From Gemmatimonas sp. (GTDB lineage Bacteria > Gemmatimonadota > Gemmatimonadetes > Gemmatimonadales > Gemmatimonadaceae), in the NCBI GenBank assembly GCA_031414535.1, contig JANNVQ010000014.1, forward strand, positions 160,001 through 224,000: DNA of 64,000 nucleotides. The letters run 5' to 3'. Position 1 is the first letter of the stretch, and each line of letters begins with the position of its first letter. Positions 5-56,741 of this stretch are shown here, piece by piece. The notes below the pieces were generated by a model. The model did not search any database. It was not told the origin of the DNA and was given only the letters and a program-made list of their open reading frames with translations. Position numbers and translations under genes: made by a program.

Positions 5-304
5 GTGGCGATAGTAGACACGCTCCTGGCGCGCCGCCTAGATGTGACGGTGCTCTTGTATCCGCGCATGCCAAGCACGCTCACTCCGACGGCACGGCAG
101 ACGACCCTGCCCCGCTTCCTCGCCCTCGCCCAAGCGGCCTTGCGCGGGCGTCCGGTGCGCGTGCTCGATCTCACCGATGTCGCGCCCTTAACAGACGCCG
201 ACTTTGGCGAGGATTTCGATCACCTTCTGCCGGCGGCGAACGCACGCTTTTCTGGCTGGGCTTTGGATGGTCCTTTTGCGTTCTTGCTTGAGGGCACGCG
301 ATGA
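5..304 (+). CDS. C-terminal fragment of SGNH-like protein (DltD/AlgJ-like MBOAT partner); runs off the window 5' edge
   Basis: DFDHL (DxxH) motif near the C-terminus; stop overlaps the MBOAT ATG (ATGA 301-304). Confidence 0.5.
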   Translation: MAIVDTLLARRLDVTVLLYPRMPSTLTPTARQTTLPRFLALAQAALRGRPVRVLDLTDVAPLTDADFGEDFDHLLPAANARFSGWALDGPFAFLLEGTR

Positions 305-1716
305 CTCCCACGAGTGTGGCATTCGCGCTGTTAGTGCTGACCGCCCTACTCCTGCACTGGACGGGTCCTCACACCTCCCGGTGGCAGAATAGCGTCCTGC
401 TGGGGTCGAGTGCCCTCTTCTACTGGTCCTGGTCGCCCGCTTGGCTGCCGGTGCTCGCGCTGTCCACGCTCGTGGATTTCTGGGCCGCACGGAAGATTGG
501 CGATGCCACCGGGGCCCCAACCCTGCGGCGATTCGCGCTCTGGTTAGGCCTTGGCAGCAACCTCGGCGTACTGCTGTGGTTCAAATACGCAGGCTTGCTG
601 CTCGACTCTGGTTCACTCGCGCTGCCGATCGGCCTCTCGTATTACACGCTCATTCGTGTTGGCTATCTGCTCGACCTGCGCTACGGACGAATCGTGGCTG
701 AGCGCTCGCTGCTGAACTTTGCGACGTTCATTTGGTTTTTCCCTCAGATGGTCGCGGGCCCCATCACTCGCGCCCGTGCGATGTTGCCGCAGTTCTCGTC
801 CGCCCGTTCGTGGCGCGACGTGAATTTCGGGAGTGCTGCCGCCGCGTTATTGCTCGGCTGGACGCTCAAGGCTTACGTGGCCGACTGGATTGGGCCCGCG
901 CTCGTGGAGCCCGTGTTTGCCTCAAGTGCAAGGTTTGGCGCGGCGGCCCACTGGCTCGCGTTAGTGAGTTACGCACTGCAGGTCTTTGGCGACTTCGCCG
1001 GCTACTCACTACTCGCCATCGGCGTGGCCGCGCTCTTTGGCATGTCGCTGCCCGTCAACTTTGACCGTCCCTTCCTCAGCCGGTCGATGCCGGAGTTCTG
1101 GCGGCGTTGGCATATCACGCTCAACACATGGCTCTTTGACTACGTGTTTGGGCCGCTGACCACGGGCGGCGGAGTGCTTCATGGACGCATCGCCTACAAC
1201 CTCGTGTTGATTTTCATGATCTCCGGGCTTTGGCACGGCGCGGAGTGGACCTTTGTGATCTGGGGACTGCTACACGGCCTGGCGCTCGCGGCGCACCACG
1301 GCTGGGATGTGTGGTACCGCGCGCAGTGCCGTCGCGACCGACGCTTCGTGACTGTTCGGAAGTCCGGCGCCTATGCATGGGCGGCTTGGGTGCTCACACA
1401 GGGCTGGTTCTTGGGCTCACTGGTTCTTTTCAAGAGTAGTGACCTCGCAAGCGCGGGTCGGTACCTCGGCGCACTCTTCGTCGCCGAGGGCACCGCATTC
1501 CCCTCGCTGGACTCCATGGCGCTGGCGAGCCTCCTCGGAGCCTTGCTGGTTGTCGCCTGGCATCATGCTGAGGGTTTGAGCTTAGGCGCGAGGCTGCGCG
1601 CGCGGTTTGACGCACTCCCTGCCCCGGTGATTGGCGCGGTCTTGGGGCTCGGGCTCGCGTGGTTGCTCATCTTCGCCCCCTTGGCCCGCACTAGCTTCAT
1701 TTATGCTCAGTTTTGA
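301..1716 (+). CDS. MBOAT family O-acyltransferase (AlgI/DltB-like)
   Basis: Multi-TM; LPIGLSYY, FFPQMVAGPI, DFAGYS, FWRRWHITL, ISGLWHGA (catalytic His); C-terminal FIYAQF. Confidence 0.92.
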   Translation: MTPTSVAFALLVLTALLLHWTGPHTSRWQNSVLLGSSALFYWSWSPAWLPVLALSTLVDFWAARKIGDATGAPTLRRFALWLGLGSNLGVLLWFKYAGLLLDSGSLALPIGLSYYTLIRVGYLLDLRYGRIVAERSLLNFATFIWFFPQMVAGPITRARAMLPQFSSARSWRDVNFGSAAAALLLGWTLKAYVADWIGPALVEPVFASSARFGAAAHWLALVSYALQVFGDFAGYSLLAIGVAALFGMSLPVNFDRPFLSRSMPEFWRRWHITLNTWLFDYVFGPLTTGGGVLHGRIAYNLVLIFMISGLWHGAEWTFVIWGLLHGLALAAHHGWDVWYRAQCRRDRRFVTVRKSGAYAWAAWVLTQGWFLGSLVLFKSSDLASAGRYLGALFVAEGTAFPSLDSMALASLLGALLVVAWHHAEGLSLGARLRARFDALPAPVIGAVLGLGLAWLLIFAPLARTSFIYAQF

Positions 1717-1718
1717 CT

Positions 1719-10460: not shown

Positions 10461-11573
10461 CTAGGGATTCGCGAGGTAGAGGCGTTCGTACTCGCGGGCC
10501 ATCCGCTCGGCGCTGTAGCGCTCATCAAAGCGGCGGCGCGCGCTGGCGCTGAAGCGCGCGCGCCGAGCGGCATCGCCGAGGACCGTCGCGAGTCCCGCCT
10601 CGAGCGCGGGCACATCCTTCGGTGGCACCAACCAAGCCGACTCATCGTGCTCCAGCGCGTCTGGCACGCCGCCCACCGCCGTCGCCACGACTGGACACCC
10701 GACCGCCATCGCCTCAAGAATCACCATCGGCAAACCCTCCCACAGCGACGGCAGCACGAAGACGTCGAAGGCCTGCAGGAGCTCCGCGACATCTCGGCGC
10801 ACGCCGAGGAAGCGCACCGTGCCATCGAGGCCCAACGCGCTTGAGCGCGCGCGCAGCTCAGCGTCCAACTCACCATCGCCGGCGATGAGCACCTGCAGCC
10901 CCGGAAAGCGTGCGGCCAATCCCACCGACGCCTCAAGCAAGTAGGAAATGCCCTTTTGCTCGGCGAGCCGCGAGGCGAAGCCAATCACGGGCGCGTCGGA
11001 CGCGATCCCAAGTGCGGCGCGCACGGCCGCGCGCTGGCCGCGCGCCGCGTACTTTCCGCCCTCGATGCCGTTGATGATGGTGCGCAGCTTGCGTTCGGGG
11101 ATCTTCTCATAGCGCCGCAGGTTCTCCGTCGTGTGCTCCGACACGCCAACCATAGCGCGCGCAAAGTACGACAGGACGTGCTCCGAGAGCATGTGGCGGA
11201 ACATGTCGGGGAAGGGACGCGCGTGATCGGTGTGGATCACCACGGGCGTTCCCGCCATCAGTGCGCCAATCGTTCCGTTGACAAACGGTTCGGTGTTGTG
11301 CGTGTGAATGACATCAATCTTTTGCGCGCGCAGTACGCGGGCCACGCGACGAAACGCGAAGTAGTCCGGACGTCCCTCGGGCCGCTCAAGCTCAATGACG
11401 CTGAAGCCGTCGGCCTCAAGCGAGTCGGCGAGCGGCCCCTTGCCCCGCAAGCAGAGCACTGAGACCTCAAAGCGCGTCGGATCAATCGTGCGGCACAGCG
11501 TTTCCACCACCCGCGGCAGTCCACCGACCCCGAGGTCGTGCGTTACCTGCATCACCTTCAATCGGGGCGTCAC
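10461..11573 (-). CDS. Glycosyltransferase family 4
   Basis: DVFVLPSLWEGLPMVILEAMA, TAVGGVPD; GTG start 11573 overlaps upstream TGA. Confidence 0.9.
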   Translation of the reverse strand: MTPRLKVMQVTHDLGVGGLPRVVETLCRTIDPTRFEVSVLCLRGKGPLADSLEADGFSVIELERPEGRPDYFAFRRVARVLRAQKIDVIHTHNTEPFVNGTIGALMAGTPVVIHTDHARPFPDMFRHMLSEHVLSYFARAMVGVSEHTTENLRRYEKIPERKLRTIINGIEGGKYAARGQRAAVRAALGIASDAPVIGFASRLAEQKGISYLLEASVGLAARFPGLQVLIAGDGELDAELRARSSALGLDGTVRFLGVRRDVAELLQAFDVFVLPSLWEGLPMVILEAMAVGCPVVATAVGGVPDALEHDESAWLVPPKDVPALEAGLATVLGDAARRARFSASARRRFDERYSAERMAREYERLYLANP

Positions 11574-12676
11574 GGAGCCTTGGGTAGCCACGCCGCAATC
11601 GCGCTCGCGAAGTCCTCGGCCATCTGGAGATTGCCGGGCGAGGTCAGGTGGCAATCGTCGAAGAACAGATTGTCCGACAAACTATGCGGCACATGCCCTG
11701 CTCGCCCACCAGCCAAGCGCATGGAATCAGCAACACCACGCAGTCGCGCTGCGAGAGTATCGCGCACCTGCTGCGTGGTTTCGGCGTCGACCACCCAGTA
11801 ACTGATGCTTGAGACATCAGCCGGCTTGTACTTCGTGCGCAGCGACGACGGCGGCGTCGAGAGCAGGAGTACCGCGCCAGCGCTGTCGGCAATCGCGGCT
11901 ATGCGATGCAGGTTTCGTGTGAAGATTTCGATGCCCTCGGGATGCACCTTCTCCGTTGGGCGCGCCACTTGAATCTGACGGTTCGTCGTCGCATCGCGCA
12001 GCACGCCTGGCAAACGGGCAACCATGAGCATGTGCTTGGTCCGCGACCACAGCGACGGACCGCCAGCTGCGTCCTCGGCGCGCAGCCGACGGAGGACGGA
12101 CTCCCAGATTAGCATCCGCTCGTCAGGGTCCTGAAGGTTTGGTATGCGCACATTGCGCACATCGTTGATGCCCGTATTGACGATGACGATATCGGGCCGA
12201 TACTTCACGCCCTCAGCGCGCAGGCGCTCGACGATGGCATTGGAGTCAAAGCCATCGAGCGCCAGGTTGAGCACCTCGAAGCGCATGCCCGGATGACGGC
12301 TGGCCAGTACCTCGCGCAGGTGTGCATCAATGGTTGCGCTGTCTTCGACGCCCCAGCCGTGTGTGGTGGAGCCGCCAAGCAGGATGATGCGCACCGCGCC
12401 GGCAGGCTTCGCGAGACTGACTTCCGGTCCGCGGTAGCCCAATGAGTTCGCGCTCGCGGTTGCGCCGTTGCGATAGGTGAGACTGGTACCGGGACGTTGG
12501 CGGTATCCGAGGCGTCCGATTGGCACGATCTGCACCGCGAGCGGGTCGTAACTGCGCAACGTTCTCGCGAGCGCTGGGTTGGACGCCGAGGCCACGCGCA
12601 GCGCGGCTTCCGTCAGGCCAAGCAAGAGCGCGCCGACGACGCCGAGCGCGAGCAGTACCACTTGAAGCCGCCTCAC
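11570..12676 (-). CDS. Membrane-anchored SGNH/GDSL hydrolase-fold protein
   Basis: N-terminal TM, NSLGYRG, LGGSTT, GIND, DDCHL. Confidence 0.82.
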   Translation of the reverse strand: MRRLQVVLLALGVVGALLLGLTEAALRVASASNPALARTLRSYDPLAVQIVPIGRLGYRQRPGTSLTYRNGATASANSLGYRGPEVSLAKPAGAVRIILLGGSTTHGWGVEDSATIDAHLREVLASRHPGMRFEVLNLALDGFDSNAIVERLRAEGVKYRPDIVIVNTGINDVRNVRIPNLQDPDERMLIWESVLRRLRAEDAAGGPSLWSRTKHMLMVARLPGVLRDATTNRQIQVARPTEKVHPEGIEIFTRNLHRIAAIADSAGAVLLLSTPPSSLRTKYKPADVSSISYWVVDAETTQQVRDTLAARLRGVADSMRLAGGRAGHVPHSLSDNLFFDDCHLTSPGNLQMAEDFASAIAAWLPKAP

Positions 12677-14081: not shown

Positions 14082-16031
14082 ATGTGCGGATTCGCCGGAC
14101 TATTTGTGCGTGGTGGCGCGGCGCCCGGTGCCCTCGAGGCTGACGCTCGGGCGCTGATTGGGCCCATCGTACACCGCGGACCTGACGACAGCGGAGTCTG
14201 GGAAAACGCCGATGCCGGCGTCGGTTTTGGATTTCGTCGCTTGGCGATTCTCGACCTCTCGCCGCTCGGCCACCAGCCCATGCATTCGAGGTCAGGGCGG
14301 TACACCATCACCTTCAACGGTGAGGTCTACAACCACCGCGACCTGCGGCGCGAGCTCGAGGCGACGGGGCATCCCTTCCGCGGCCATTCGGACACCGAAG
14401 TGATGCTCGCGGCCTGCGAGGCTTGGGGGTCGCGCGAGGCCATCTCGCGCTTTGCGGGCATGTTCGCCTTCGCCCTCTGGGACAACGCCGAGCGTCGGCT
14501 TACGCTGGCCCGCGACCGGCTGGGCAAAAAGCCGCTGTTCATTTTCCATCACGGCGGCGTGCTCCTGTTCGGCTCTGAACTCAAAGCCTTGGCCGAGCAT
14601 CCGCGCTTTCTGCGCGTGGTTGACCCAGACGCTGTCGCCTCGTACCTGCGCTACGGCTACGTTCCTGCGCCTGGCGCCATCTACCGTCACGTGCAGAAGC
14701 TGCGTCCGGGACATTTCCTTGAGGTTACGGACCCTGCTCAGCCCCTGCCGGAGAGCAAGGCCTACTGGGATGTGGTCGCGGTGGCGGACGCGGCGCGCAG
14801 GCGCCCTCTGACCGACGAGCGCAGAGGACTTGACGATCTCTCGGCGCTGCTCGACGACGCCGTAAAGCGCCGCCTAGAATCGGACGTACCGCTCGGCGCC
14901 CTATTGTCGGGCGGCATCGACTCCTCGCTGATTGTGTCCCGAATGCAGGCCGTGTCTGGGCAGCGCGTGCGCACGTTCACCATTGGGTTTGACGAGCCGG
15001 AGTGGGATGAGTCTTCGCACGCGGCCGATGTGGCGGCGCACATCGGGACGGACCACACGATGCTTCGCCTCAGTGGAAGCGACGCTCTCGCGGTGGTGCC
15101 AGACCTGCCGATGCTGTTCGACGAACCGCTGGCCAATCCTTCGCATATCCCCACACTGCTCGTTTGCCGGCTCGCTCGGCGCGACGTGACCGTCGCGCTC
15201 TGCGGCGACGGCGGAGACGAGCTGTTTGGCGGATACAATCGCTACGTGGCGGGCCCAACATCCATCGCCCAGGCGCTGCGCGTGCCGCCGGTGCTACGCG
15301 GATTGGGCAGTCGCGTGCTGCTCGGCGTCTCGGCGCCCACGTGGGATGCGGTGGCGCGCGCCTTGGTGCCGAGTCGCTGGCGGCCTCGGCTCGCCGGGGA
15401 GAAAGCGCAGAAGCTCGGCCGCATGCTGGCCGCTGGCAACGTGTCCGATGCCTACCGCTGGCTTGTGTCGGCGGCGGGCGATCCGGCCGAGCTCATGACC
15501 GCAGGGCGAGAGCCGCAGCGTCGCGACAGTGAAATACTGGCCGATGCGTCACGCGGCACGATGGCCGAGCGCATGATGCTCGCGGACCAGATGTTTTACT
15601 TGCCGGACGACCTGCTGGCCAAGGTGGACCGCACCAGCATGGCCGTGAGCCTCGAGGTGCGCGCTCCGCTGCTCGATGCTCGGCTTGTAGAGTTTGCCTG
15701 GCAGATGCCGCTCGACATGAAAATCCGCAGCGGCATCACCAAGTGGGCGCTGCGCGAGTTGCTTGCGCGCGACGTGCCCCGCGCGATGTTTGAGCGCCCC
15801 AAGATGGGATTCAGCGTTCCCATCCGAGCCTGGCTCACCGGCCCGCTTCGTCCGTGGGCGGAGGATCTTCTCTCGGATGCCTCGCTGCGCGAGGTGCCGT
15901 TGTTGTCGGCCCCTGCCGTGCAGCGCGAGTGGCAGGCGCTGGTGGCGGGCCGTGCTGGCAGCGGCTACGGGATGTGGACCTTGCTGCAGCTCATCGCTTG
16001 GTGGCGGGTCTGGAAGCCGACCGTGGGCTGA
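14082..16031 (+). CDS. asnB: Asparagine synthase (glutamine-hydrolysing) family amidotransferase
   Basis: MCG N-terminus, HRGPD, NGEVYN, SDTE, LSGGIDSS, GDGGDELFGGY, KVDR..MA.SLE.R. Confidence 0.92.
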   Translation: MCGFAGLFVRGGAAPGALEADARALIGPIVHRGPDDSGVWENADAGVGFGFRRLAILDLSPLGHQPMHSRSGRYTITFNGEVYNHRDLRRELEATGHPFRGHSDTEVMLAACEAWGSREAISRFAGMFAFALWDNAERRLTLARDRLGKKPLFIFHHGGVLLFGSELKALAEHPRFLRVVDPDAVASYLRYGYVPAPGAIYRHVQKLRPGHFLEVTDPAQPLPESKAYWDVVAVADAARRRPLTDERRGLDDLSALLDDAVKRRLESDVPLGALLSGGIDSSLIVSRMQAVSGQRVRTFTIGFDEPEWDESSHAADVAAHIGTDHTMLRLSGSDALAVVPDLPMLFDEPLANPSHIPTLLVCRLARRDVTVALCGDGGDELFGGYNRYVAGPTSIAQALRVPPVLRGLGSRVLLGVSAPTWDAVARALVPSRWRPRLAGEKAQKLGRMLAAGNVSDAYRWLVSAAGDPAELMTAGREPQRRDSEILADASRGTMAERMMLADQMFYLPDDLLAKVDRTSMAVSLEVRAPLLDARLVEFAWQMPLDMKIRSGITKWALRELLARDVPRAMFERPKMGFSVPIRAWLTGPLRPWAEDLLSDASLREVPLLSAPAVQREWQALVAGRAGSGYGMWTLLQLIAWWRVWKPTVG

Positions 16032-17145
16032 GCTGTTCGGCAATCAGGGGCAGCACCTGAGCGGTGAGAAGCGCGTGTCCCGCAGCCGTAAAGTGCTGGT
16101 CCACCGTTCCATAGAGGTGAGTGCCCGCCCGCTGCGCCTCGCGGAAGGCCGGCAACACGTCAATGTTGCGGAGACCACGCGCCGTCATCGCCGCGGCGAG
16201 CAAGCGGTTCGGTTGCTCCGCGTCAATTGATGCGGTGTCTAGCCCGAATCCGCGCGCGTATTGCATCATGAGCGCCGGATCAATCTGGTAGGGCGCTGGA
16301 AGCAGGACGAATATGGGCTCCACGCCCGTCTTCCGAGCGGCAACCGCAATCTCCTCGAGGATTGTCGCCGTGTTGTCCCAACGTCCATCCTCAGCGACCG
16401 ACTTGTTGAAATCCGGTGGGAAGTACGCCGCCGTAAGTCCGAGGCGCATGCGTAGGGTCTCGAGCCGGCTTTTCAGCAGCACGAAAAGATGTGAGCGCTC
16501 CTCGAGGAAGTCGTTCACCGGATACAGCAGAGCGTCCACGAACTCGCGCGCCGAGAGTTGGCGCGGAAAGCGCAGGCTGTGGAGCTCCGTCGGTGTACGC
16601 GGCCTGTAGGCGGGAGTTCGCCACTGCATGATGTCGTTGCCCAAGTACACGGCGACCAGCGCGGCGCTGAACTGAGTCTCACGGACCAGTGCCTCCGCGC
16701 GCAAGCGATACTGCTCTGGGTTCCAGCCGCCTACGCCGGCGTTCCAGGTTTCCAGCGTCGGGTCCGCCAGGGTAGTCCGCAGCGCCGCTTGGAGAAGCCC
16801 GGCCGTGCTGGAGTCGTGCTCCACCTGAATGGCTTCCATAAACGAGTCCCCAAGGATGAGCACCTTTCGGGCATCGGGAACGCGTGTGGTCCCGGGGGCG
16901 ATTCGGAGTGCCCGAGGGTCCGTGGCGAGAGTCACCTCGCCCTCACCGGTGTTGATCGTGGTAACGATGTTGGGCTGATGCAGCCAACCGAGGGTGTCCG
17001 CGGCTTGGTAGATATCGGCCCGCCTAATGATCAACTGTTGTGGCACCGCGATGCGCACGGCTACCTCGCCGAGTCCGCAGGCAAAGAGGCCAGAGAGGCC
17101 GACGAGCAATCCATTGAGCAGGAGCGTGCGAAACAGACGGTTCAC
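15991..17145 (-). CDS. Membrane-anchored SGNH/GDSL hydrolase-fold protein
   Basis: N-terminal TM, LGDSFM, NAGVGG, GND, DQHF; GTG start 17145. Confidence 0.82.
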   Translation of the reverse strand: MNRLFRTLLLNGLLVGLSGLFACGLGEVAVRIAVPQQLIIRRADIYQAADTLGWLHQPNIVTTINTGEGEVTLATDPRALRIAPGTTRVPDARKVLILGDSFMEAIQVEHDSSTAGLLQAALRTTLADPTLETWNAGVGGWNPEQYRLRAEALVRETQFSAALVAVYLGNDIMQWRTPAYRPRTPTELHSLRFPRQLSAREFVDALLYPVNDFLEERSHLFVLLKSRLETLRMRLGLTAAYFPPDFNKSVAEDGRWDNTATILEEIAVAARKTGVEPIFVLLPAPYQIDPALMMQYARGFGLDTASIDAEQPNRLLAAAMTARGLRNIDVLPAFREAQRAGTHLYGTVDQHFTAAGHALLTAQVLPLIAEQLSPRSASRPATKR

Positions 17146-17291
17146 GGCAGCTGATTGAGTGGAAGGGCAAAACCTGTGTTCTGGAGCAAGTGACTTAGCC
17201 GTTGCCCTAGTCAGCCTTGCGGCAGATGCGTCCAACCCCCAAATCTAGACCGGGTGACAGCGCGCTGACAGCATTGGAAGGAGCGTATGGA

Positions 17292-37861: not shown

Positions 37862-37995
37862 GTAATGCGTTGTCCTGTTTAAACTTACACTGCCTTCCGA
37901 TTCGGTCCAAAACGCTTCGGATTGCGGCCCTACTCCTGCTGTAGTTCACTGCGTTAGTGGACCGCCGTCAAGATTTCGACTTCCCGAGTTGCGTA

Positions 37996-42633: not shown

Positions 42634-42646
42634 GCGGATCTATTGA

Positions 42647-45600
42647 ATGTCTGAGCCACGGGAACTGCAGGGCAACGAAATCGCCATCGTCGGCATGGCG
42701 GGACGCTTTCCAGGCGCGCGCAGCTTGGCGGAGTTCTGGCGCAACCTCGAGGGCGGCGTCGAGTGCATCCGCATGCTGAGTGACGAAGAGCTGCGGGCAG
42801 CGGGAGTGTCGGAGCGTCAGCTCGCCGACCCCAACTACGTGCGCGCCGCGGCCATCCTCGACGACATGGAGAGCTGGGACGCCCCGTTCTGGGGATTCAC
42901 ACCGCTCGACGCGAGCATCATGGATCCGCAGCATCGCCTGTTCCTGGAATGCGCGTGGGAGGCATTCGAGGACGCCGGTCACGCGCCCGAACAGTTCGCT
43001 GGCGCGATTGGCGTATTCGCAGGCTGCGGCATGCAGGCCTACATGTCGTACAACCTGCTGCCCAACAAGAAGCTGATGGACAGCACGGGACTCTTTCTCG
43101 TGCGCCACACCGGCAACGAGAAGGACTTCCTCGCGACCCGCGTCTCGTACCAGATGAACCTGCGCGGCCCCAGCGTGAGCGTGCAGACGGCCTGCTCCAC
43201 CTCGCTGGTCGCGTTGCATCAAGCTTCGCAGAGCCTGCTCAGCGGCGAGTGCGACATGGCCATCGCCGGTGGCGTGACGATCGAGATGCCGCATCGCGTG
43301 GGCTACACGTACAAGGAGAACGAGATCCTCTCGCCGGACGGCCATTGCCGCGCTTTCGACGCCGAGTCCAAGGGCACGGTGTTCGGCTCTGGCGCGGGCG
43401 CCGTGGTGCTGCGTCGCCTTGAGGACGCGCTGCGTGATGGCGATCGCATTCACGCCGTGGTGCTCGGCTCGGCCATCAACAACGACGGTTCCAACAAGGT
43501 CGGATATCTCGCGCCGTCCGTGGATGGGCAGTCGGCGAGCATCGTCGAGGCGCTTGGCGTCGCGAACGTATCGCCCGACAGCATCAGCTACGTAGAGACG
43601 CACGGCACGGGCACGCCCGTCGGTGATCCCATCGAAGTCACGGCGCTCACCCAAGCCTTTCGTACGGGCACGGACCGTACGGGCTTCTGCGGCATCGGCT
43701 CGCTCAAGACCAGCATCGGGCACCTCGACACCGCCGCCGGTGTGGCGAGCCTCATCAAGACCGTGCTGGCCATGGCGCACCGCAAGCTGCCGCCGAGCCT
43801 CAACTTCACGGCGCCGAATCCCGCCATCGACTTTGCCGCGAGCCCGTTCTATGTGAACGCCTCGCTCAAGGACTGGAACGCTGAGCCGCGCCGTGCTGGC
43901 GTGAGCTCACTTGGCGTGGGTGGCACCAACGCGCATGTCATCGTCGAAGAGCCGCCAGTCGCCACGCCCTCGGGCCCTTCGCGTCCTTGGCAGCTCCTCA
44001 ACGTGTCCGCGCGCACGCGCACGGCACTGGATGTCGCGAGCGCCAATCTCGCGGACCATCTCGATGCCAATCGCGAGTTGCCGCTCGCCGATGCCGCGTT
44101 CACCCTGAGCACCGGACGTCAAGCGCTCAAGGAGCGGCGCATCGTGGCCGCCCGCACGCACGAGGAAGCACGCCGTTTGCTCGATGCGAACGAGAAGGAG
44201 CGCGTGTTCTCCGACACCGCGTCGGATCGCGCACAGGCGGCATTCCTGTTTGCCGGCGGTGGCGCGCAGTATGCGGGAATGGGCGCTGAGCTCTACGCGG
44301 CTGAGCCCGTCTACAAGCGGGCGGTGGATGAATGCCTGCAGCAGCTCGATGCGGACATCGCGCGCGAAGTACGAGCGTTGCTGCTGCCCGCCGCTGGAAC
44401 CGAAGCCGAAGGCTCGGCCCGACTCGAGCGCCCCTCGCTCGCCTTGCCGGCGCTCTTCAGCACGCAGTACGCGATGGCCAAGCTGCTGGAGTCCTGGGGC
44501 ATTGTCCCGGAATCGATGATCGGCCATTCGATGGGCGAGTACACGGCCGCGCATCTCGCGGGCGTCTTCTCGTTGAAGGACGCACTGCGTCTCGTGGCGC
44601 TCCGTGGTCGCCTGTTTGAAACGGTGCCTGCAGGTGCAATGCTCAGCGTACCGCTCTCCGAAGCTGAGTTGCGCCCCCTGCTCGGTACCGAACTCAGCAT
44701 CGCCGCCGTGAACGCGCCCCAGCTCTGCGTGGCGTCCGGACCTGTTGCAGCGATTGACGCGCTGGCCGCTGCGCTGGCGTCCAAGGAAATTGATGCCAAG
44801 AAGCTGCACATCGCCGTGGCTGCACACTCGGCGATGCTGGAGCCCATCCTGAAGGAGTTCGGCGACTTCTTCCGCACCATCAAGATGAGTGCGCCAAAGC
44901 GGCCGTTCGTCTCCAATGAGTCGGGCACTTGGATTACCAAGGAGCAGGCGACGGACCCAGAGTATTGGGTGCGCCACCTACGCAATACCGTACGCTTCGC
45001 CGACGGCGTCGCCGAACTCGTGCGCGATTCCGCGCGCGTGCTCGTGGAAGTCGGTCCGGGACGCGTACTCGCCACGCTGGCCCGTCAGCACCCCGACCGT
45101 CAGCAGTCGCAGTTAGTGATGACCACGATGCGTTCGTTCAGCGACGAAGGGGCGGACCTTCAGTTCGCACTCACCGCACTCGGTCGGCTCTGGGCGCGCG
45201 GCCTCAAGCCCGATTGGTCTGCCTACTGGAGCGATGAATCGCGTCGCCGGGTGTCGCTGCCGACCTATCCCTGGGAGCGTCAGCGGCACTGGATTGACGC
45301 ACCCGTCGCCGGCGCGAACGCCGAGCCTGACGAATCCCGCCGCACGCGCGTCGAGGATTGGCTGGCACGGCCCTCGTGGAAGCAGACACTTCCGCCATCG
45401 CCGATCACGGCCAAGGATGGGCGCGTGCTGGTGTTCGCCGACGAGACGGGCTTCAGCGATCTCTTGGCGGAACAGCTCCGCGCCGCCGGCCGTACGGTCC
45501 GCCGCGTCGTCGCGGGCAATGCGTATGGGCAGAATGCGGACGGCGGCTTCACCGTCCGTGCCGGCGCCATGGAAGACCACGGCAAGATGCTTGCGGCCCT

Positions 45601-48400: not shown

Positions 48401-49179
48401 ACCCGATTTTCTTCGGCCGCGCACCGCGGTCGCTGTTTGGTGTCTACCATCCACCCAAGGCCGCGCAGGCGCGCGCTACGGGCGTGGTGCTGTGCTATCC
48501 GTTTGGGCAGGAGTACATGCGCGCGCACCGCGCATACCGGCAGATGGCGCTGCTGCTGAGCAAGGCGGGCTTCCACGTGATGCGCTTTGACTACTACGGC
48601 ACGGGTGATTCCAGTGGCGATGCCGTGGATGCCTCGCTCACGCAGTGGGTCGAAGACGCACGCAGCGCAGCGGACGAGTTGAAGGAGACCGCCGAGATCA
48701 AGCGCGTCGCCTTCGTTGGCCTGCGCTTGGGTGCTGCCGTTGCTGCACTCGCCGCAGAGGGCCGCGACGACGTGGACCAAGTGGCCCTTTGGGATCCGGC
48801 AGTCACGGGTGCAGCGTATCTCGCCGAGATTACGGAGCAGCGCACGGATTCGGTGGGCAACTCGCGGCACTCCACCAGTGAAGGCGGTTTGGTGGGCGTG
48901 CTCGGATTTCCCATTACCGACGCGCTCCGAAAGGACCTCGGGGCGATGGATTTGCGTGAGGTCGGCGCGCCAAAGGGGAGCGGGCGACTTATCGTCGCCG
49001 CACATGAGCGTGAGGAGTACAGCGCGCTCGGCAACTTGCCCGTGGACGGCGTACGAGTGAAGTATCAGGTGGTGCCCAGCGAGGGCAATTGGAATGAAGT
49101 GGACGACTACGGCGGTGCCCTGATTCCGGTGTTCCTGATTCAGGCCATCGTTGCGCACCTTTCGCAGGAGATTCGATGA
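48397..49179 (+). CDS. Alpha/beta hydrolase-fold protein resembling exosortase-associated hydrolase 2
   Basis: RFDYYGTGDS, nucleophile elbow GLRLG, LWDP; GTG overlaps the PKS stop. Confidence 0.75.
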   Translation: MNPIFFGRAPRSLFGVYHPPKAAQARATGVVLCYPFGQEYMRAHRAYRQMALLLSKAGFHVMRFDYYGTGDSSGDAVDASLTQWVEDARSAADELKETAEIKRVAFVGLRLGAAVAALAAEGRDDVDQVALWDPAVTGAAYLAEITEQRTDSVGNSRHSTSEGGLVGVLGFPITDALRKDLGAMDLREVGAPKGSGRLIVAAHEREEYSALGNLPVDGVRVKYQVVPSEGNWNEVDDYGGALIPVFLIQAIVAHLSQEIR

Positions 49180-50126
49180 CCGCTGTTACGTATGGAAGAG
49201 AGAAGGCGCTGCGCTTTGGCTCGGGCTCGTCCCTCGTGGGCGTGCTCACGGAAGCGGCGGCCGGCAGCGCGGCGGCGGGCCGCCCCGGCGTCATCTTCCT
49301 GAACTCCGGCATCCTGCACCGCGTGGGCTCGTGCCGCCTCCATGTGCGTTTGGCTCGCGCCATGAGCGCGGCGGGTTTCCATGCGCTGCGCTTTGACTAT
49401 TCGGGCATCGGCGACAGCGACCAGCGTCGCGATTCGCTGCCCTTCGAGGAGAGCGCCGTGCTCGAGACGAAGGAGGCGATGGATTACCTCGCCAAAGCCA
49501 AGGGCGCGCAGAAGTTCATCCTCATTGGCCTTTGCTCCGGCGCCGACATGGCGCATGAGACCGCGCTGCGCGACGAGCGTGTGGCCGGGTTGATGCTCTT
49601 GGATGCCTGGGCGTATCGGAACCCTGGCTACTACATGCATCACTATGGCCCCAAGCTCTTCAACGTGAACGTGTGGCGGAACTCGATTGGCATTCGATTG
49701 AAGATGCTCCGCGGCAGCGACAACGACACGCGGGTCTGCATCCCGGGCTCCGAAGGTGTGGAATACGACGTGCCAAAGTACGTGCGTGTCTTTCCGCCCA
49801 AGGAGCGCATCGGTGCTGATCTGCGTGCCTTCGTCAAGCGTGGCGTCGAGATGCGCTTCGTGTGGACGGGTGGCCTCGAGGAGTACAACCACGAGGGTCA
49901 GTACGCGTCCACGTTCCGCGACGTCGGCCTGGGCAAACTGTTCGAAGAAGCGTACATGCCCGACGCCGATCATATCCTGACGGGCCTCGAGCATCAGGAC
50001 CAGGTCATTGATCGCACCCTGCGCTGGGCCACGCAGCGCTGGCCTGCGCAGAACGCTGGCAAGCCGTCGGCCGCTGCCGCAGCCGCAGTGCCATCGGCAG
50101 TCGAACGTCCAGCATCCGTCGCGTAG
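49176..50126 (+). CDS. Alpha/beta hydrolase-fold protein resembling exosortase-associated hydrolase 1
   Basis: HRVG, RFDYSGIGDS, elbow GLCSG, ADH near C-terminus. Confidence 0.75.
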   Translation: MTAVTYGREKALRFGSGSSLVGVLTEAAAGSAAAGRPGVIFLNSGILHRVGSCRLHVRLARAMSAAGFHALRFDYSGIGDSDQRRDSLPFEESAVLETKEAMDYLAKAKGAQKFILIGLCSGADMAHETALRDERVAGLMLLDAWAYRNPGYYMHHYGPKLFNVNVWRNSIGIRLKMLRGSDNDTRVCIPGSEGVEYDVPKYVRVFPPKERIGADLRAFVKRGVEMRFVWTGGLEEYNHEGQYASTFRDVGLGKLFEEAYMPDADHILTGLEHQDQVIDRTLRWATQRWPAQNAGKPSAAAAAAVPSAVERPASVA

Positions 50127-51397: not shown

Positions 51398-51981
51398 TGC
51401 GCGCATTACGGCAATTGGCGAAGTATGTGCTGCGCACGCCCCAGCGCCTCCTGCATCCGCACCGGCGTCAGGCGGCAGAAGCGATGCTTCGCGCGGCTCC
51501 CGTCAACTCGGTGCTCGTGCTCTGTTTGGGCAACATCTGCCGCAGTCCCTACGCCGCGGCCCAATTGCGAGAGGCCTTGGGTCCGGCTTGGACAGGGCGC
51601 GTGGATTCCGCAGGCTTCGTTGGCCCAGGGCGCCCGTCGCCATGGGAGGCCGTGAATGTGGCCACGGAGCACGGCGTGGATTTGAGTGCGCATCGCTCAC
51701 GTACGGTAGTCGCCGAGGACATCACGCAGTTCGACCTCATCATCGTCATGGAAGCGGGGCAACACACCCGACTAAACAAGACCCTCAGCGCGTGCGCGCC
51801 ACGCGTGTTGGTGCTCGGCGATCTCGACCCGGAGCCAATCTCGCAGCGCACGATTGTTGATCCCTTTGGTCGCGGGCTAGGCGAGTTCCATTCAAGCTAC
51901 GCGCGCATCGATCGCTGCACCGCGCGCCTCGCAGCAGCAATCAGCGCGCTTCGCAGTACCGACCCGCGTCCGGCGCGCTGA
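51397..51981 (+). CDS. Low-molecular-weight protein-tyrosine phosphatase (Wzb-like)
   Basis: CLGNICRS P-loop, DSAG, DPF. Confidence 0.88.
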   Translation: MRALRQLAKYVLRTPQRLLHPHRRQAAEAMLRAAPVNSVLVLCLGNICRSPYAAAQLREALGPAWTGRVDSAGFVGPGRPSPWEAVNVATEHGVDLSAHRSRTVVAEDITQFDLIIVMEAGQHTRLNKTLSACAPRVLVLGDLDPEPISQRTIVDPFGRGLGEFHSSYARIDRCTARLAAAISALRSTDPRPAR

Positions 51982-52993
51982 GCAACGACTCCGCGAGCAC
52001 CTTGGCGGCAAGCGCGTAGCCGCGCGCTGATGCGTGGCCGTCGCGCGGCAAAAGGTATAAGATCGTGTCCGGCAGCCCCGACGAACGCAGCGGCGTGTGC
52101 AGGTCCACGTAGTGGTCGCCGCGGTCGCGGACCATGTCCTCAAACCAGCCGAACGTCGTGCGATTGCGATCCGCCAATGCATTGTGCGAAGGATACGCCG
52201 TGACGACGAGCGGAACGCCGAACTCGGCGGCGCGGGTTGCGAGAGCAGCGTATTGGTCGGCGTAGCGGCTCCGAAGCGAGTCAATGTCCGGTAGTGCGTG
52301 CTGACTGAGTGGAGCGTCGGCGCGACGACGACGCTCCACCGCGCCCATCCGTGTACGCGCGTCACGCAACAGAGACCAGAGCGCAAGGCGGCGCAGTACG
52401 GGGTACACCATGTTCATCGGGAACGCCGACTTCAGCTCGCGCGACTTGGCGAGTTGCTCCCAAAAGGTAGGCCGTCGCAGGTCCACAACATCGTTATCGT
52501 GGTGTACGAGGATGATGGCGTCAGGCTTCAATGGCAGCGCCCGTTCGAGGATGTCGCGCTGCGCGTCTATTGTGGAGCCGGGCAAGGCGAGGTTGAGCAC
52601 GCGCGAGTTGCGGCAACCCATCGCGAACTCCGCCTCAATCCGCGCTGGCAAGGTGGCGCTGTCGTCTACGAACTGCCCCCACGCGAAGGAATCACCGAGC
52701 ACGATGATTCGCCGCTCTCCTTCCGGTTTCTGCAGCCCAATCTCGGGTCCGCGAAAGCCTTGCTGGTTGATGCTCACGGCAAAGTGCAGTCCGCTGCGGC
52801 TGCGATCCACCCTGCTTTCGGCAGGAAAATGAACGCCCGGAAACTCGTCGAATCGGTCTTGATCAAGCGTGACGGCTGTGGGAGGGCTCGCAAGTCCGAG
52901 AACGCGCACGGCGAGCTCTCCTAGAGCGAGCGCGAACACGCTACCAATCACCGCGCCCAGAAGCAGGCGAACGAATCGGGGCCACTTCTTCAC
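51941..52993 (-). CDS. Membrane-anchored SGNH/GDSL hydrolase-fold protein
   Basis: N-terminal TM, INQQGFRG, LGDSFAWG, ND, DGHA; GTG start 52993. Confidence 0.82.
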   Translation of the reverse strand: MKKWPRFVRLLLGAVIGSVFALALGELAVRVLGLASPPTAVTLDQDRFDEFPGVHFPAESRVDRSRSGLHFAVSINQQGFRGPEIGLQKPEGERRIIVLGDSFAWGQFVDDSATLPARIEAEFAMGCRNSRVLNLALPGSTIDAQRDILERALPLKPDAIILVHHDNDVVDLRRPTFWEQLAKSRELKSAFPMNMVYPVLRRLALWSLLRDARTRMGAVERRRRADAPLSQHALPDIDSLRSRYADQYAALATRAAEFGVPLVVTAYPSHNALADRNRTTFGWFEDMVRDRGDHYVDLHTPLRSSGLPDTILYLLPRDGHASARGYALAAKVLAESLLSAPDAGRYCEAR

Positions 52994-54099
52994 TCGCGCG
53001 GCCACTCCGGCCGTTTCGCCAACCAACTTCCCGTGGCCTCGCCAAGCATCGCGTATCCGTCCGCGTTTGGGTGCTTGTTGTACGGCAGGAAGAGTTCAGC
53101 GCCAAGGCCGCGCGATTCCCACAATGCGTGAGCATCGAGGTATGGGATGCCCAAGCTGTCGAGCATGGCGCGCGCAAGCCGCGGGTAGGGGTGACGGCTC
53201 AGGTCGGTGCCGCGCACAATCACTTCGACAGGCATGATGACGACGTAGAGTGCAAAGCCACGCTCCGCAGCCAACTCTTGGAGCTCGGCGTAGAACTTCG
53301 GGATGCGGGCGAATCCTGCCGTATCAACCACGCCGGATTCAAGCAGACCCTCCACGCGATCGTATTCCATCTCGCCTGCACGCGCTCCGCTGACGGCCGC
53401 GCGCATCGTAGCTGCGGCGCGGCGAGCGACGAACAGTAAAGCTGATCGCCGCGCCACTCTCGACGCGATGCCCACTTTGTCCATCGCAGTCTCTGCGTCA
53501 TCCCACACGAAAAGGCCATTATCCGTCAGCACGCGCAGCGCGGGCTTCTGGATGGAATCGTTGACCAGATAGTCATTCCAGTAGAGGCCGTGGACGACAA
53601 CATCTGCGTGGACCTCGCGCAGCGTCTCTTGGAGCAGGTCGAGTTCCTGATTGATCTGATAGCTGATGACTCCGGCGTTAACCACGCGAACCGCAGCGCC
53701 GCGCGCACGCAGGGCCTGCTCGAGCCTCGCCGGGAACGTGGCGCTGTCATCCACACCCATGCCGAACGTAAAGCTGTCGCCTAACGCGATGACGGTTGCC
53801 GTCTCGGTGGTGTCTGAGGGGCCTGCCGAGTGCTGCCGCAGGCCATCGAGACCGACCGTGACTGAGCCCCCGAACGAGTACGCGCGTTGGTTGGGGCGTG
53901 GGGTGAAGAGGCGCGAGGGATGCGAGTCGTAGCGCAGCTGCGGAGCGGGGCGCTCGAGCGGTAGAGTAACGAGCCGACGGGCAAGAACCTCCGCGACTGC
54001 CACCAAGCTGGCGAGGACGAGCCCAACCAGAAGGACGGCGACGACCCGGATTTTCCGGGCAGCTGAGGGAGGCGCGGCGCTGGTATTCTCGAGGCTCAT
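52990..54099 (-). CDS. Membrane-anchored SGNH/GDSL hydrolase-fold protein
   Basis: N-terminal TM, LGDSFTFG, NAGVISY, WND, NKHP. Confidence 0.82.
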   Translation of the reverse strand: MSLENTSAAPPSAARKIRVVAVLLVGLVLASLVAVAEVLARRLVTLPLERPAPQLRYDSHPSRLFTPRPNQRAYSFGGSVTVGLDGLRQHSAGPSDTTETATVIALGDSFTFGMGVDDSATFPARLEQALRARGAAVRVVNAGVISYQINQELDLLQETLREVHADVVVHGLYWNDYLVNDSIQKPALRVLTDNGLFVWDDAETAMDKVGIASRVARRSALLFVARRAAATMRAAVSGARAGEMEYDRVEGLLESGVVDTAGFARIPKFYAELQELAAERGFALYVVIMPVEVIVRGTDLSRHPYPRLARAMLDSLGIPYLDAHALWESRGLGAELFLPYNKHPNADGYAMLGEATGSWLAKRPEWPRE

Positions 54100-54131
54100 T
54101 TGGCTTAGAGAGGAAACAGCCCGCCGAGCCT

Positions 54132-54171
54132 ATGCGCAAGTGTCTTTCGGGGCGTTGCGCTCGCGCAACGC
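54132..54171. promoter_or_regulatory. Palindromic candidate operator GCGTTGCGC-TC-GCGCAACGC preceded by ATGCGCAA
   Basis: Perfect 9-bp arms at 54152-54160 and 54163-54171, between divergent genes. Confidence 0.35.
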
Positions 54172-54321
54172 TATCGTACCGAATCCCTACTGGTACGCCT
54201 TCACCTCCACAGCTAAGTTCCTCTGTAGAAACAAGTTCGGGATTCGAAAGGGATTCCCCGCCTTCTGCGCGATTCTTGCGTAAGAGTGCTTGTTTCCTTC
54301 CCGCCCCCCGGAATCCCGCCA

Positions 54322-56160
54322 TTGACGCGTCCCACCGGAAAGTACGTCCTCGGCCTCTCGGCCTACTACCACGACAGCGCCGCCTGCATTGTGCGGGACG
54401 GCGAGATTATCGCCGCAGCGTCTGAAGAGCGCTTCACCCGCAAGAAGGCGGATGAGCGCTTTCCCGAGCACGCCGTTGATTACTGCTTGAAGGAAGCAGG
54501 AATCAGCATCGACCAGCTCGACGCCGTGGGTTTCTATGACAAGCCCCTGCTCAAGTTCGAGCGCATCCTCGAGACCTATCTCGGCGTCGCGCCCAAGGGA
54601 TTCCGTTCGTTCCTGATGGCCGGCCCGCTCTGGATCAAGGAGAAGCTCTACACCGACCGAGAGCTGCGCGCCGCCCTCGGTGGTTACCAGGGCCACCTCT
54701 ACTACTCCGAGCACCACGAGTCGCACGCCGCCAGCGCCTTCTTCCCGTCGCCGTTTGAAGAAGCCGCCATCCTTACCATGGACGGCGTAGGCGAGTGGGC
54801 GACGGCGTCCATCGGCATCGGACGCGGGGCAGACATCGAAATCCATGAGGAATTGCACTGGCCCGATTCGCTGGGCCTCCTCTACTCCGCGTTCACGTAC
54901 TACACCGGCTTCAAGGTGAACTCCGGTGAGTACAAGGTGATGGGCCTCGCCCCATACGGCCAGCCGAAGTACGTAGACCTCATCTTGAAGCACGTGATGG
55001 ACCTTCGCGAAGACGGGTCCTTCCGCTTCAACCAGAAGTACTTCAATTATCTCAACGGGCTCACCATGACGAGCCCGGCGTTCCATGAGCTGTTCGGTGG
55101 CCCGCCGCGCGAGCCCGAATCTCAGCTGACCCAGCGCGAGATGGACCTCGCCCGCTCGGTGCAGGACGTCTGCGAGCTGGTGATGATGAAGATGGCCACG
55201 CACGCCAAGAAGGTGACCGGCCTCGACAACCTCTGCCTCGCCGGCGGCGTCGCGCTCAATTGCGTGGGCAACGGCAAGTTGCTGCGCGACGGACCGTTTA
55301 AGAACATCTGGATTCAGCCTGCCTCCGGCGACGCCGGCGGCGCGCTTGGCGTGGCTCAGCTCATCGCGCACCGCGAGCTCAAGGTGCCACGTCGCGTCAC
55401 GCCTGGCACCGATGGCATGAAGGGCTCCTACCTCGGACCGTCCTACTCGGACGCCGAGATCCAAGCCTTCCTGGATTCGAAGAATATCCCGTACGAACAG
55501 GTGGCCGAGTCGGAACTGGCCGCCACGGTCGCCAAGGAACTCGCCGACCAGAAGATCATCGGATGGCTCCACGGCCGCATGGAATTTGGACCGCGCTCGC
55601 TCGGTGCCCGCAGCATCCTCGGCGATCCGCGCAGCCAGTCCATGCAGGCCGACATGAATCTCAAGATCAAGTTCCGCGAAAGCTTCCGCCCCTTCGCACC
55701 GAGCGTGCTGCGCGAGCGGGTGAGCGACTACTTCGAGTTGGATGGCGATTCACCGTACATGTTGCTCGTGGCACCGGTGAAGAAGGAGCGCCAGATCCCG
55801 ATGACCGACGACCAGGGCAAGCTCTTCGGCATCGACCTGCTCAACCAGCAGCGCTCCGACATCCCCGCCATCACGCACGTCGACTACTCCGCGCGCGTGC
55901 AGACCGTGCGGAAGGACGTCAACCCGATGTACCACGCGCTGCTCAGCGAGTTTGAGCGGCTCACCGGCTGCGCGGTTCTCGTGAACACCTCGTTCAACGT
56001 GCGTGGCGAACCGATCGTCATGACGCCCGAAGACGCCTACCGCTGCTTCATGCGCACGCACATCGACGTGCTGGTGCTGGGCAACCACGTTTTGCGCAAG
56101 CAAGCACAACCCAAATGGCAGGAGACCGAGCAATGGCAGGAAGAGTTTCAGCTCGACTGA
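54322..56160 (+). CDS. Carbamoyltransferase (NodU/CmcH/SxtI family)
   Basis: YHDSAA, EERFTRKK, HHESHAASAF, DGVGE, EYKVMGLAPYG, GGVALN, EFGPRSLG, KFRESFRPFAP, NTSFN; start approximate (TTG 54322 or GTG 54286). Confidence 0.93.
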   Translation: MTRPTGKYVLGLSAYYHDSAACIVRDGEIIAAASEERFTRKKADERFPEHAVDYCLKEAGISIDQLDAVGFYDKPLLKFERILETYLGVAPKGFRSFLMAGPLWIKEKLYTDRELRAALGGYQGHLYYSEHHESHAASAFFPSPFEEAAILTMDGVGEWATASIGIGRGADIEIHEELHWPDSLGLLYSAFTYYTGFKVNSGEYKVMGLAPYGQPKYVDLILKHVMDLREDGSFRFNQKYFNYLNGLTMTSPAFHELFGGPPREPESQLTQREMDLARSVQDVCELVMMKMATHAKKVTGLDNLCLAGGVALNCVGNGKLLRDGPFKNIWIQPASGDAGGALGVAQLIAHRELKVPRRVTPGTDGMKGSYLGPSYSDAEIQAFLDSKNIPYEQVAESELAATVAKELADQKIIGWLHGRMEFGPRSLGARSILGDPRSQSMQADMNLKIKFRESFRPFAPSVLRERVSDYFELDGDSPYMLLVAPVKKERQIPMTDDQGKLFGIDLLNQQRSDIPAITHVDYSARVQTVRKDVNPMYHALLSEFERLTGCAVLVNTSFNVRGEPIVMTPEDAYRCFMRTHIDVLVLGNHVLRKQAQPKWQETEQWQEEFQLD

Positions 56161-56555
56161 CCCCCGCCGAGGGCCGGAAGTTCGGCTTTACGGTCGGAAT
56201 CGCGTTCGGCGTCCTCGCCGCGGTCCTCTATTTCTGGCGGCACGCGACCACCGCGTCGGCGGTACTGGGCAGCCTCAGCGGATTCCTGCTCGTGGGCGGC
56301 CTCGTGGCACCGGTGCAACTCACGCCCATCGAACGGGCGTGGATGAAGCTGGCCCACATCATCTCCAAGGTCACCACTCCAATCTTCATGGCCGTGGTGT
56401 ACTTCGTGGTCATCGCGCCGGTCGGAATCGCTCGGCGCCTAATGGGCAAGAATGCGCTGGTACGCGTTGCCGGCGAGCCGCCTCAGACGCCTGCTGGCTA
56501 CTGGGTGCAGCGGCCCGTGGGCAAGCGTCAGGGCGACCTCTCGCGTCAGTTCTAA
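56133..56555 (+). CDS. SxtJ family membrane protein
   Basis: RKFG, W.KLA, P.G...R, YW, C-terminal RQF; directly follows the carbamoyltransferase; ATG 56133. Confidence 0.8.
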   Translation: MAGRVSARLTPAEGRKFGFTVGIAFGVLAAVLYFWRHATTASAVLGSLSGFLLVGGLVAPVQLTPIERAWMKLAHIISKVTTPIFMAVVYFVVIAPVGIARRLMGKNALVRVAGEPPQTPAGYWVQRPVGKRQGDLSRQF

Positions 56556-56579
56556 CTTCTTTCAGTTCCGAGTCCCTAC

Positions 56580-56741
56580 GTGAGCAAGCCAACTAGCCTG
56601 ACCCAAGAAGTGTGGGCCTTTCTCAAGGCCCGCAAGAAGTTCTGGATGCTGCCCATCATCCTCGTGATGGTGCTCATTGGCGCCCTGCTGGTCTTTGCCC
56701 AGGGATCGGCGCTGGCCCCGTTCATCTATACCATCTTCTAG
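56580..56741 (+). CDS. SxtK/DUF5989-like 53-aa membrane peptide (not in ORF track)
   Basis: Manual translation: MSKPTSLTQEVWAFLKARKKFWMLPIILVMVLIGALLVFAQGSALAPFIYTIF*; GTG 56580, TAG 56739-56741. Confidence 0.88.
   Translation: MSKPTSLTQEVWAFLKARKKFWMLPIILVMVLIGALLVFAQGSALAPFIYTIF

Follow-up and report, generated by a model that had tools for sequence, protein, structure and literature searches.

A cassette of three genes, coding for a carbamoyltransferase (CT), an SxtJ-family protein (J) and a 53-aa DUF5989 peptide (K), was analyzed in a 64,000-nt stretch of Gemmatimonas sp. DNA (GCA_031414535.1, contig JANNVQ010000014.1, positions 160,001–224,000 of the forward strand; hereafter the window, in whose numbering positions are given). 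The cassette is a real and widespread module without a description in the literature searched, and it would differ from the DltX and PatA systems in its donor enzyme and in operating with no membrane-bound O-acyltransferase (MBOAT). The reading that we favor, and hold to be probable on comparative grounds, is a carbamoyl relay: the CT would form a carbamate on the C-terminal tyrosine of K, and the group would pass to the serine of an SGNH protein and from there to a hydroxyl of a surface glycan, with no MBOAT taking part. A tyrosine shuttle had been proposed in a first-pass annotation of this DNA. Its comparative predictions, concerning the tyrosine, the CT clade and the link to SGNH proteins, were supported, while carbamoyl-tyrosine itself, the crossing of the membrane and the polysaccharide acceptor are still only proposed.

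The gene set of that annotation was recovered in full, with the CT, SxtJ and 53-aa peptide genes and two divergent genes for membrane-anchored SGNH proteins, and all five open reading frames (ORFs) lie where it had placed them:

SGNH protein 1: 51941..53026, minus strand; Pfam GDSL_2 (PF13472), with GDS and D-G-H motifs; single N-terminal anchor, predicted periplasmic.
SGNH protein 2: 52990..54099, minus strand; Pfam GDSL_2 (PF13472), with GDS motif; single N-terminal anchor, predicted periplasmic; member of the K-linked subfamily.
CT: 54322..56160 (longest ORF from 54286), plus strand; Carbam_trans_N and Carbam_trans_C (PF02543 and PF16861); no transmembrane (TM) segment.
J: 56133..56555 (longest ORF from 56115), plus strand; SxtJ (PF19588) membrane protein, likely a scaffold between CT and K.
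K: 56580..56741, plus strand; DUF5989 (PF19451; 86 bits versus a cut-off of 27), SxtK-like membrane microprotein.

According to alignments, translation of the CT probably begins no earlier than the TTG at 54322, whereas J probably starts with the ATG at 56133.

K had been regarded as unannotated; it belongs in fact to a known family of unknown function, DUF5989. Its other features were as first described: a basic KARKK stretch, one hydrophobic helix (approximately residues 23–40) and the C-terminus APFIYTIF. The peptide starts with a basic amphipathic helix, continues with one TM helix and ends in an uncharged tail, in which Tyr50 is the proposed carbamoyl carrier. Conservation was assessed in 206 loci: that of the window, five on plasmids, the 80 closest in sequence and 120 picked from five phylum samples, weak matches among them. 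Searching these with an iterated profile yielded 212 K hits. A false hit was removed, as was a copy with a C-terminal extension, in which the tyrosine is still present. In the resulting 210 tails tyrosine occupies position −4 without exception, as it does in 120/120 K homologues. Pro is found at −7 in 205 tails, Phe at −6 in 196 and Phe at −1 in 202; the strict FxYxxF occurs in 188, and overall the tail reads P-[F]-[IV]-Y-[TAS]-[LI]-F. The tyrosine is also kept in 61/63 CT-anchored metagenome loci, the other two having one cut-off tail and one tail with an N. Among 126 K proteins W22, P25 and Y50 are invariant, and K16, R18, K19 and K20, located ahead of the hydrophobic helix, are basic in 90–100%; judging from charge, K should be a single-pass protein with its N-terminus inside. 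Invariance by itself is no proof of a catalytic role, as Trp22 and Pro25 equal Tyr50 in this respect.

DUF5989 was detected in 86/301 (a tally including one unpublished genome, G155), 46/301, 124/208, 36/151 and 95/151 genomes of the five phylum samples, and its profile matches 6,308 clusters at 50% identity. On pSymB of Sinorhizobium meliloti 1021, at about 484 kb, genes for SGNH, J, K and CT lie together. A search of a phage collection gave no K match. Longer K homologues found in protein sets (21 + 12 inspected) look like mis-called starts or frameshifts and were set aside. Six loci (L049, L101, L145, L178, L281 and L305) contain two K copies each, with sometimes divergent tails; FIYAG[IVF] is the end of some Omnitrophota-like copies at two-copy loci.

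The CT is a class III enzyme of the TobZ/GdmN/NodU type (E values of 1e-90 to 1e-75 against the NovN, GdmN and TobZ structures), a class for which carbamoyl-AMP chemistry is established (PMC9633730). It carries Kae1-like and YrdC-like domains, the iron ligands and the catalytic His (H17, H131, H135, D154 and D337 are invariant), and its Y72 aligns with the keystone tyrosine, Y82, of GdmN and NovN. TobZ, GdmN and NovN share this two-domain build and the aligned residues, but their pockets vary and the carbamoyl goes straight to the hydroxyl of a small molecule, whereas the K-linked clade combines a near-invariant pocket with constant small partners. Conservation of the segments corresponding to the GdmN acceptor pocket is 0.83–0.97 in 126 K-type CTs, compared to 0.73 for the whole protein and 0.31–0.64 in a mixed control set. 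Median identity across loci is 61% for CT, 53% for K, 26% for J and 19% for SGNH. The near-invariant pocket, together with the 61% versus 19% identity of CT and SGNH, suggests that the CT may have one fixed acceptor and that specificity may sit in the SGNH proteins.

K is tied to a single CT clade. A K-type CT, called at about 900 bits or more, was found in 40/40 K-positive and 0/40 K-negative genomes (80 tested; the gene is in pieces in four), with other CTs present in 11 of the 40 K-negative ones. Near the 163 K genes with at least a 4-kb flank, a CT was found in 145 cases and J in 139, while neither J nor K was found beside non-K-type CTs at any of 38 loci. At loci L024, L046, L048 and L054 a second, more distant CT gene is located immediately upstream of the K-type CT.

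Five of the 38 loci with non-K CTs have an SGNH-like neighbor, and four of these five CTs end in ...RVYTFF. A search with the C-terminal region containing this end retrieved 52 proteins: 35 end in [VIL]-Y-T-[FL]-x, one more stops one residue short, and the remaining 16 have K-type or unrelated ends. Such an end is present in 1/62,281 other closed ORFs. No TM segment was found in the 35 fused tails. A quick version of a CT tree, computed for 54 proteins (18 of 126 K-type, 16 tail-type and 20 of 34 others), gave a support of 98 for the K-type clade, 100 for the tail clade and 98 for both together with one other CT. At seven tail-type loci (L228, L229, L231, L233, L267, L268 and L347, four of which are close relatives) a gene of ~700 aa with G-E-S and D-Y-C-H motifs is found directly downstream in 7/7 cases. 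Four of its products match Pfam GDSL weakly (E 0.001–0.012, under the cut-off), and no TM segment was found in the six measured; the gene appears as a soluble SGNH/TPR-like one. Neither J nor K was detected at the six tail-type loci scanned. NRPS-like (nonribosomal peptide synthetase) genes adjoin five of the seven, one of these on a Streptomyces plasmid, and the unit of tail-type CT and soluble SGNH likely tailors natural products.

This sister clade, with its tail in cis and a soluble SGNH partner, is the best evidence that the CT acts on tyrosine. It suggests that the CT may load the tyrosine itself, J and K being the membrane-crossing form of the same device. Loading, left unexplained by the first-pass annotation, in this way gains comparative support from the cis-tailed enzymes. 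In neither the 210 K tails nor the 35 fused tails is the tyrosine ever replaced by Phe, whereas neighboring aromatics vary, which implicates the tyrosine hydroxyl. Related observations are a CT at L227 (4570-8108) that the tree places between the K-type and tail-type clades and that has an SGNH-like neighbor, with no K, no tail and no small tyrosine-tail ORF found at the locus, and 131 Ralstonia records of a plasmid collection with a related CT (~46–48% identity to the tail-type query); no Ralstonia was among the matches listed for a K search of the same collection.

J is modelled as a helical hairpin followed by a long kinked helix (residues 11–36, 39–58 and 60–103, pLDDT (predicted local distance difference test) 89). 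Only a Pro, a Trp and another Pro are conserved at ≥90%; invariant Ser, Thr, Tyr, Cys or His residues are absent. For lack of an invariant nucleophile, a role of J as a covalent relay was ruled out, and J is probably a scaffold joining CT and K; passage of the group "via SxtJ", as first proposed, stands in the scaffolding sense and not in the chemical one. In-frame CT–J fusions were found at L117 and L140 (clean) and at L282 (with half of J), and J–K fusions at L137 and L341; doubtful fusions (CT–J at L178, J–K at L325) and frameshifted cases (L025, L048 and L197) were set aside, and, as the fusions come from assembled contigs, single cases may be errors. These fusions place the CT, both ends of J and the N-terminus of K on the cytoplasmic side. 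The J model matched no PDB fold (best E 1.8), and an Atlas search with J returned SxtJ clusters only. Homology between J and K was also ruled out: MAFFT put the second half of J onto K, but hhalign gave 0.7%, and the MAFFT alignment was not used.

The positional link between K and SGNH genes was borne out. An SGNH gene lies ≤1 kb from the cassette in 93/163 loci and ≤3 kb in 104/163, and SGNH density drops from 0.27 to 0.009–0.017 per kb between the first kb and the range of 3–7 kb. Beside 17 K genes with no CT or J nearby, an SGNH gene was found within 1.2 kb in 11 cases. At the genome level the SGNH subfamily is present in 109/116 K-positive versus 18/124 K-negative genomes (38/40 vs 2/40, 36/40 vs 12/40 and 35/36 vs 4/44 in the individual samples), these genomes being hand-picked subsets of the phylum samples, many of them incomplete, with kin that are not independent. 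The Gemmatimonas genome itself has a single copy of K and, by profile search, one CT, one J, one MBOAT and six SGNHs of the K-linked subfamily, four of them in the window; elsewhere up to 15–16 SGNH paralogues per genome accompany a single CT–J–K set. Two subfamily members of the window are encoded away from the cassette:

SGNH protein 3: 11570..12676, minus strand; within the polysaccharide cluster, candidate further K client.
SGNH protein 4: 15991..17235, true start probably near 17139, minus strand; candidate further K client.

The catalytic triad is retained in most K-linked SGNHs (Ser in 103/105, His in 103/105 and Asp in 87/105); in SGNH protein 2, as read from its sequence, Asn replaces the usual Asp of the D-x-H motif, ahead of the catalytic His. 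SGNH proteins 1 and 2 each have one N-terminal hydrophobic helix with basic residues more numerous before than after it. An N-in/C-out charge bias is seen in all four window SGNHs and in 62 of 85 single-anchor SGNHs, so the anchored domains are predicted to be periplasmic. A Ser-His-Asp triad and an N-terminal anchor are likewise features of the DltD, PatB and AlgX-like transferases, the topology of the K-linked proteins being a prediction.

The FXYXXF motif with an acylated tyrosine is the shuttle motif of DltX and PatA; acyl-tyrosine has been shown for PatA, and transfer from acyl-tyrosine to the SGNH serine is established in MBOAT–SGNH relatives (PMC12148441). Non-covalent binding to partner enzymes has also been described for the DltX tail (PMC13653941). 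DltX of the DltX/DltB/DltD system, which serves the D-alanylation of teichoic acids with DltB as the MBOAT and DltD as the SGNH protein, is, as K, a single-pass microprotein with an FxYxxF-like C-terminal hexapeptide, an invariant tyrosine and a link to an anchored SGNH protein (PMC12148441, PMC13653941), but the donor enzyme for K is a soluble ATP-dependent CT with SxtJ instead of an MBOAT, and the group moved would be carbamoyl. According to PMC12148441, MBOAT pathways besides Dlt lack such a microprotein. Among MBOAT–SGNH pairs of the PatA/PatB kind the tyrosine tail comes in two forms, joined to the donor or as a separate microprotein, and the CT shows the same two: the cis tail with soluble partners corresponds to PatA, and the trans tail with J and anchored SGNHs to DltB plus DltX. 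The SGNH subfamily linked to K also occurs beside PatA/PatB-type MBOATs with fused FxYxxF tails. MBOATs solve the crossing problem with a catalytic His in the membrane, whereas with a cytoplasmic CT the tail itself would need to cross.

The window contains an MBOAT of its own, used here for comparison:

MBOAT: 301..1716, plus strand; ends in FIYAQF; separate self-contained acylation system.

The likeness of its end to that of K (FIYTIF), pointed out in the first-pass annotation, is real: K and this MBOAT are the only ones among all six-frame ORF ends of the window with F-[IVL]-Y-x-x-F within three residues of the stop. K and MBOAT-type tails have the tyrosine motif in common, but the K tail is led by Pro, lacks charge and has a higher hydrophobicity (median hydropathy of the last 13 residues 1.04 versus 0.22, and 0.17 versus 1.55 charged residues, in comparison with 11 MBOAT-type tails). 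An hhalign comparison of K with 11 MBOAT and DltX-like tails gave a probability of 87% over 26 columns, a value that is partly circular, the tails having been picked by motif. DltX was absent among the 25 listed of 32 Pfam families that match the 126 K proteins with E values of at most 5, and no relative of the K profile was found among solved structures (best E 0.09). K would work like DltX, whether or not it belongs to the DltX family. Independence from MBOATs, also claimed at first, was upheld: an MBOAT is found in only 6/206 K loci, and the three tail-less ones have a separate microprotein of their own, so K, unlike DltX, is not encoded with a tail-less MBOAT for it to serve. The window MBOAT has a tail of its own and is accompanied by an SGNH-like gene, which lies upstream of the window, and on the downstream side by a carrier-protein-like gene; it does not need K either, and a role of K as its shuttle was ruled out on account of that tail.

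Two side observations concern these MBOATs. In the window (301-3946, together with G000:C14:159321-161982) SGNH-like, MBOAT, carrier-protein-like and acyl-CoA-synthetase-like genes make up a complete acylation unit. At L006 (10175-11526), L055 (5108-6426) and L071 (13171-14399) short MBOATs (372–403 aa) lacking an FxYxxF tail are followed by a membrane ORF of 36–44 codons that ends in FVYTGF or FIYSTF and has no Pfam match; these pairs are DltB/DltX-like split systems, from Gemmatimonadaceae and a Peribacter genome.

The favored relay can be laid out in five steps. The CT would make carbamoyl-AMP from carbamoyl phosphate and ATP, as is established for its class and as its catalytic residues allow. 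J would tether the CT to the membrane and bind K, a role to which the natural fusions point. The CT would then carbamoylate Tyr50 of K, as the cis-tailed sister clade and the near-invariant acceptor pocket suggest. The uncharged tail would travel along J from the cytoplasmic side of the membrane to the periplasmic side and back, which is the weakest step. Finally, by analogy with DltD and PatB and in keeping with the co-occurrence data, the SGNH serine would accept the carbamoyl and hand it to an acceptor hydroxyl, each of the divergent SGNH paralogues supplying its own acceptor specificity.

Several points weigh against this relay, and its weak points are the membrane crossing and the turnover of a carbamoyl-serine enzyme. 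A 13-residue tail must reach both a cytoplasmic and a periplasmic active site, by a route that no model shows. Turnover of carbamoylated serine hydrolases is usually slow, and cyanate can form by decay of unsubstituted aryl carbamates. In an AlphaFold2 monomer model of a tail-type CT the fused tail has no defined position (residues 574–588, pLDDT <50), which would fit a flexible arm, with no docking seen in that monomer. No SGNH gene lies within 1 kb of 70/163 cassettes or within 3 kb of 59/163, and no substitute enzyme family emerged from the 112 of 153 neighbors of SGNH-less cassettes that were scanned; these encode glycosyltransferases, flippases, ligases, epimerases and housekeeping proteins. 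The SGNH subfamily is missing from 7/116 K-positive genomes and is not exclusive to them, given the 18/124 K-negative carriers; of 20 SGNH loci from K-negative genomes, four are beside an MBOAT and 16 beside neither an MBOAT nor K. The SGNH profile was partly built from K-positive genomes that were then counted (~10 of 40 in the first sample), though 28 of the other 30 still match. As to topology, nine of the single-anchor SGNHs have the opposite charge bias and 14 have none, and no anchor was found in 15/109 SGNHs.

We take SxtK of the saxitoxin clusters to be a DUF5989 protein, from gene order and size alone. The window answers to the description of the sxtIJKL module, with a CT, SxtJ, a ~54-aa gene and a GDSL gene together, and on a Planktothrix plasmid SxtJ, DUF5989 and SGNH genes follow in that order (L084, 9579-11418), adjoining a sterol-desaturase-family gene, with no CT found within the 20 kb examined. 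The sxtI-J-K-L genes form the same set with the same sizes (1839, 405, 165 and about 1280 bp); sxtJ and sxtK are listed as unknown or hypothetical, and SxtL is a GDSL lipase proposed to decarbamoylate (PMC2679770). Unlike the saxitoxin genes, the cassette studied here lies in a polysaccharide and polyketide synthase (PKS)/NRPS region, and the relatives of its K are mostly from Gemmatimonadota. The crocagin cluster similarly combines a CT (CgnI) with an SGNH protein (CgnD), and CgnD (PDB 8a2n) is the only solved structure that matches the SGNH profile nearly full length in one stretch (positions 49–335). CgnD was shown to be a slow hydrolase and assigned as a slow leader-peptide protease, and unrelated homologues are listed for the genes named CgnJ and CgnK (PMC10070186). 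By its profile match, a transferase role of CgnD is a possibility.

These systems bear on the best-surviving alternative, which we nevertheless consider unlikely: J and K would merely anchor or activate the CT, a lipid-linked or soluble precursor would be carbamoylated in the cytoplasm, and the SGNHs would be decarbamoylases or editing esterases. This is close to the roles proposed for saxitoxin, with carbamoylation by SxtI with SxtJ and SxtK and decarbamoylation by SxtL (PMC2679770), and it agrees with the slow hydrolysis by CgnD (PMC10070186), with the anchoring role shown by the CT–J fusions and with the many cassettes that have no neighboring SGNH. It leaves unexplained, however, the invariant terminal tyrosine, an acceptor pocket that stays near-invariant across phyla with differing neighboring pathways, and a soluble sister clade that keeps both tail and SGNH partner with no anchor present. 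Lyngbya wollei, with a truncated sxtI, no sxtL and no sxtJ mentioned in the text of the report, still makes decarbamoyl analogues (PMC3037375), a pattern that fits SxtL acting with SxtI and speaks against decarbamoylation by SxtL, though the paper's authors read it otherwise.

A still less probable alternative retains the tyrosine of K as the carrier but keeps the relay wholly cytoplasmic, with a re-entrant hydrophobic tail and SGNH domains facing inward. The crossing problem then disappears, the uncharged tail is more hydrophobic than MBOAT-type tails (1.04 versus 0.22), and in the sister clade soluble proteins would carry out the same relay; but the N-in/C-out bias of 62/85 anchored SGNHs and of all four window SGNHs opposes it, as does the occurrence of the membrane scaffold and anchors only with the free form of K. 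Least likely of all, the tail could be a non-covalent docking motif coupling CT, J and SGNH while carbamoyl travels as carbamoyl-AMP or on another small carrier, for which the non-covalent contacts of the DltX tail (PMC13653941) and the invariance of Trp22 and Pro25 can be cited, against the absence of any Tyr-to-Phe change in free or fused tails amid varying aromatics and the acyl-tyrosine shown for PatA (PMC12148441).

A broader form of the favored relay extends it to a widespread system of two formats, in which the CT clade carbamoylates only a tyrosine tail and never the final substrate, interchangeable SGNHs being the true carbamoyltransferases; the chances for and against it appear to us about equal. 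The same even judgment applies to the division of the formats, the tail being either fused to the CT (soluble, often beside NRPS genes) or supplied by DUF5989 held by SxtJ (membrane-crossing). If true, the relay would be the first trans-membrane transfer of an acyl-type group through a tyrosine shuttle that is free of both MBOAT and AT3 proteins. It would give functions to DUF5989 and SxtJ, explain the roles of sxtJ and sxtK, and reassign SxtL-like proteins from decarbamoylases to transferases. It would also explain how groups derived from cytoplasmic carbamoyl phosphate are delivered to the surface, and why one CT–J–K set exists alongside up to 15–16 SGNH paralogues. A literature search found no paper on DUF5989, which subscription papers and supplements outside the search could mention, and nothing on a carbamoyl shuttle or on a link of SxtJ, SxtK or the CT with DltX, MBOAT or SGNH proteins, a mention elsewhere being possible; the word "carbamoyl" is absent from the main text of PMC12148441.

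The 46 window proteins scanned have the appearance of a polysaccharide and PKS/NRPS region. The long polysaccharide region around the cassette includes genes for a flippase, a Wzy-type protein and numerous glycosyltransferases, as well as a PKS/NRPS pair and the two further SGNH genes. Within this region, positions 37957-50126 contain an NRPS-like gene (with formyltransferase, AMP-binding and luciferase-like domains), a PKS gene and two alpha/beta hydrolases resembling exosortase-associated hydrolases.

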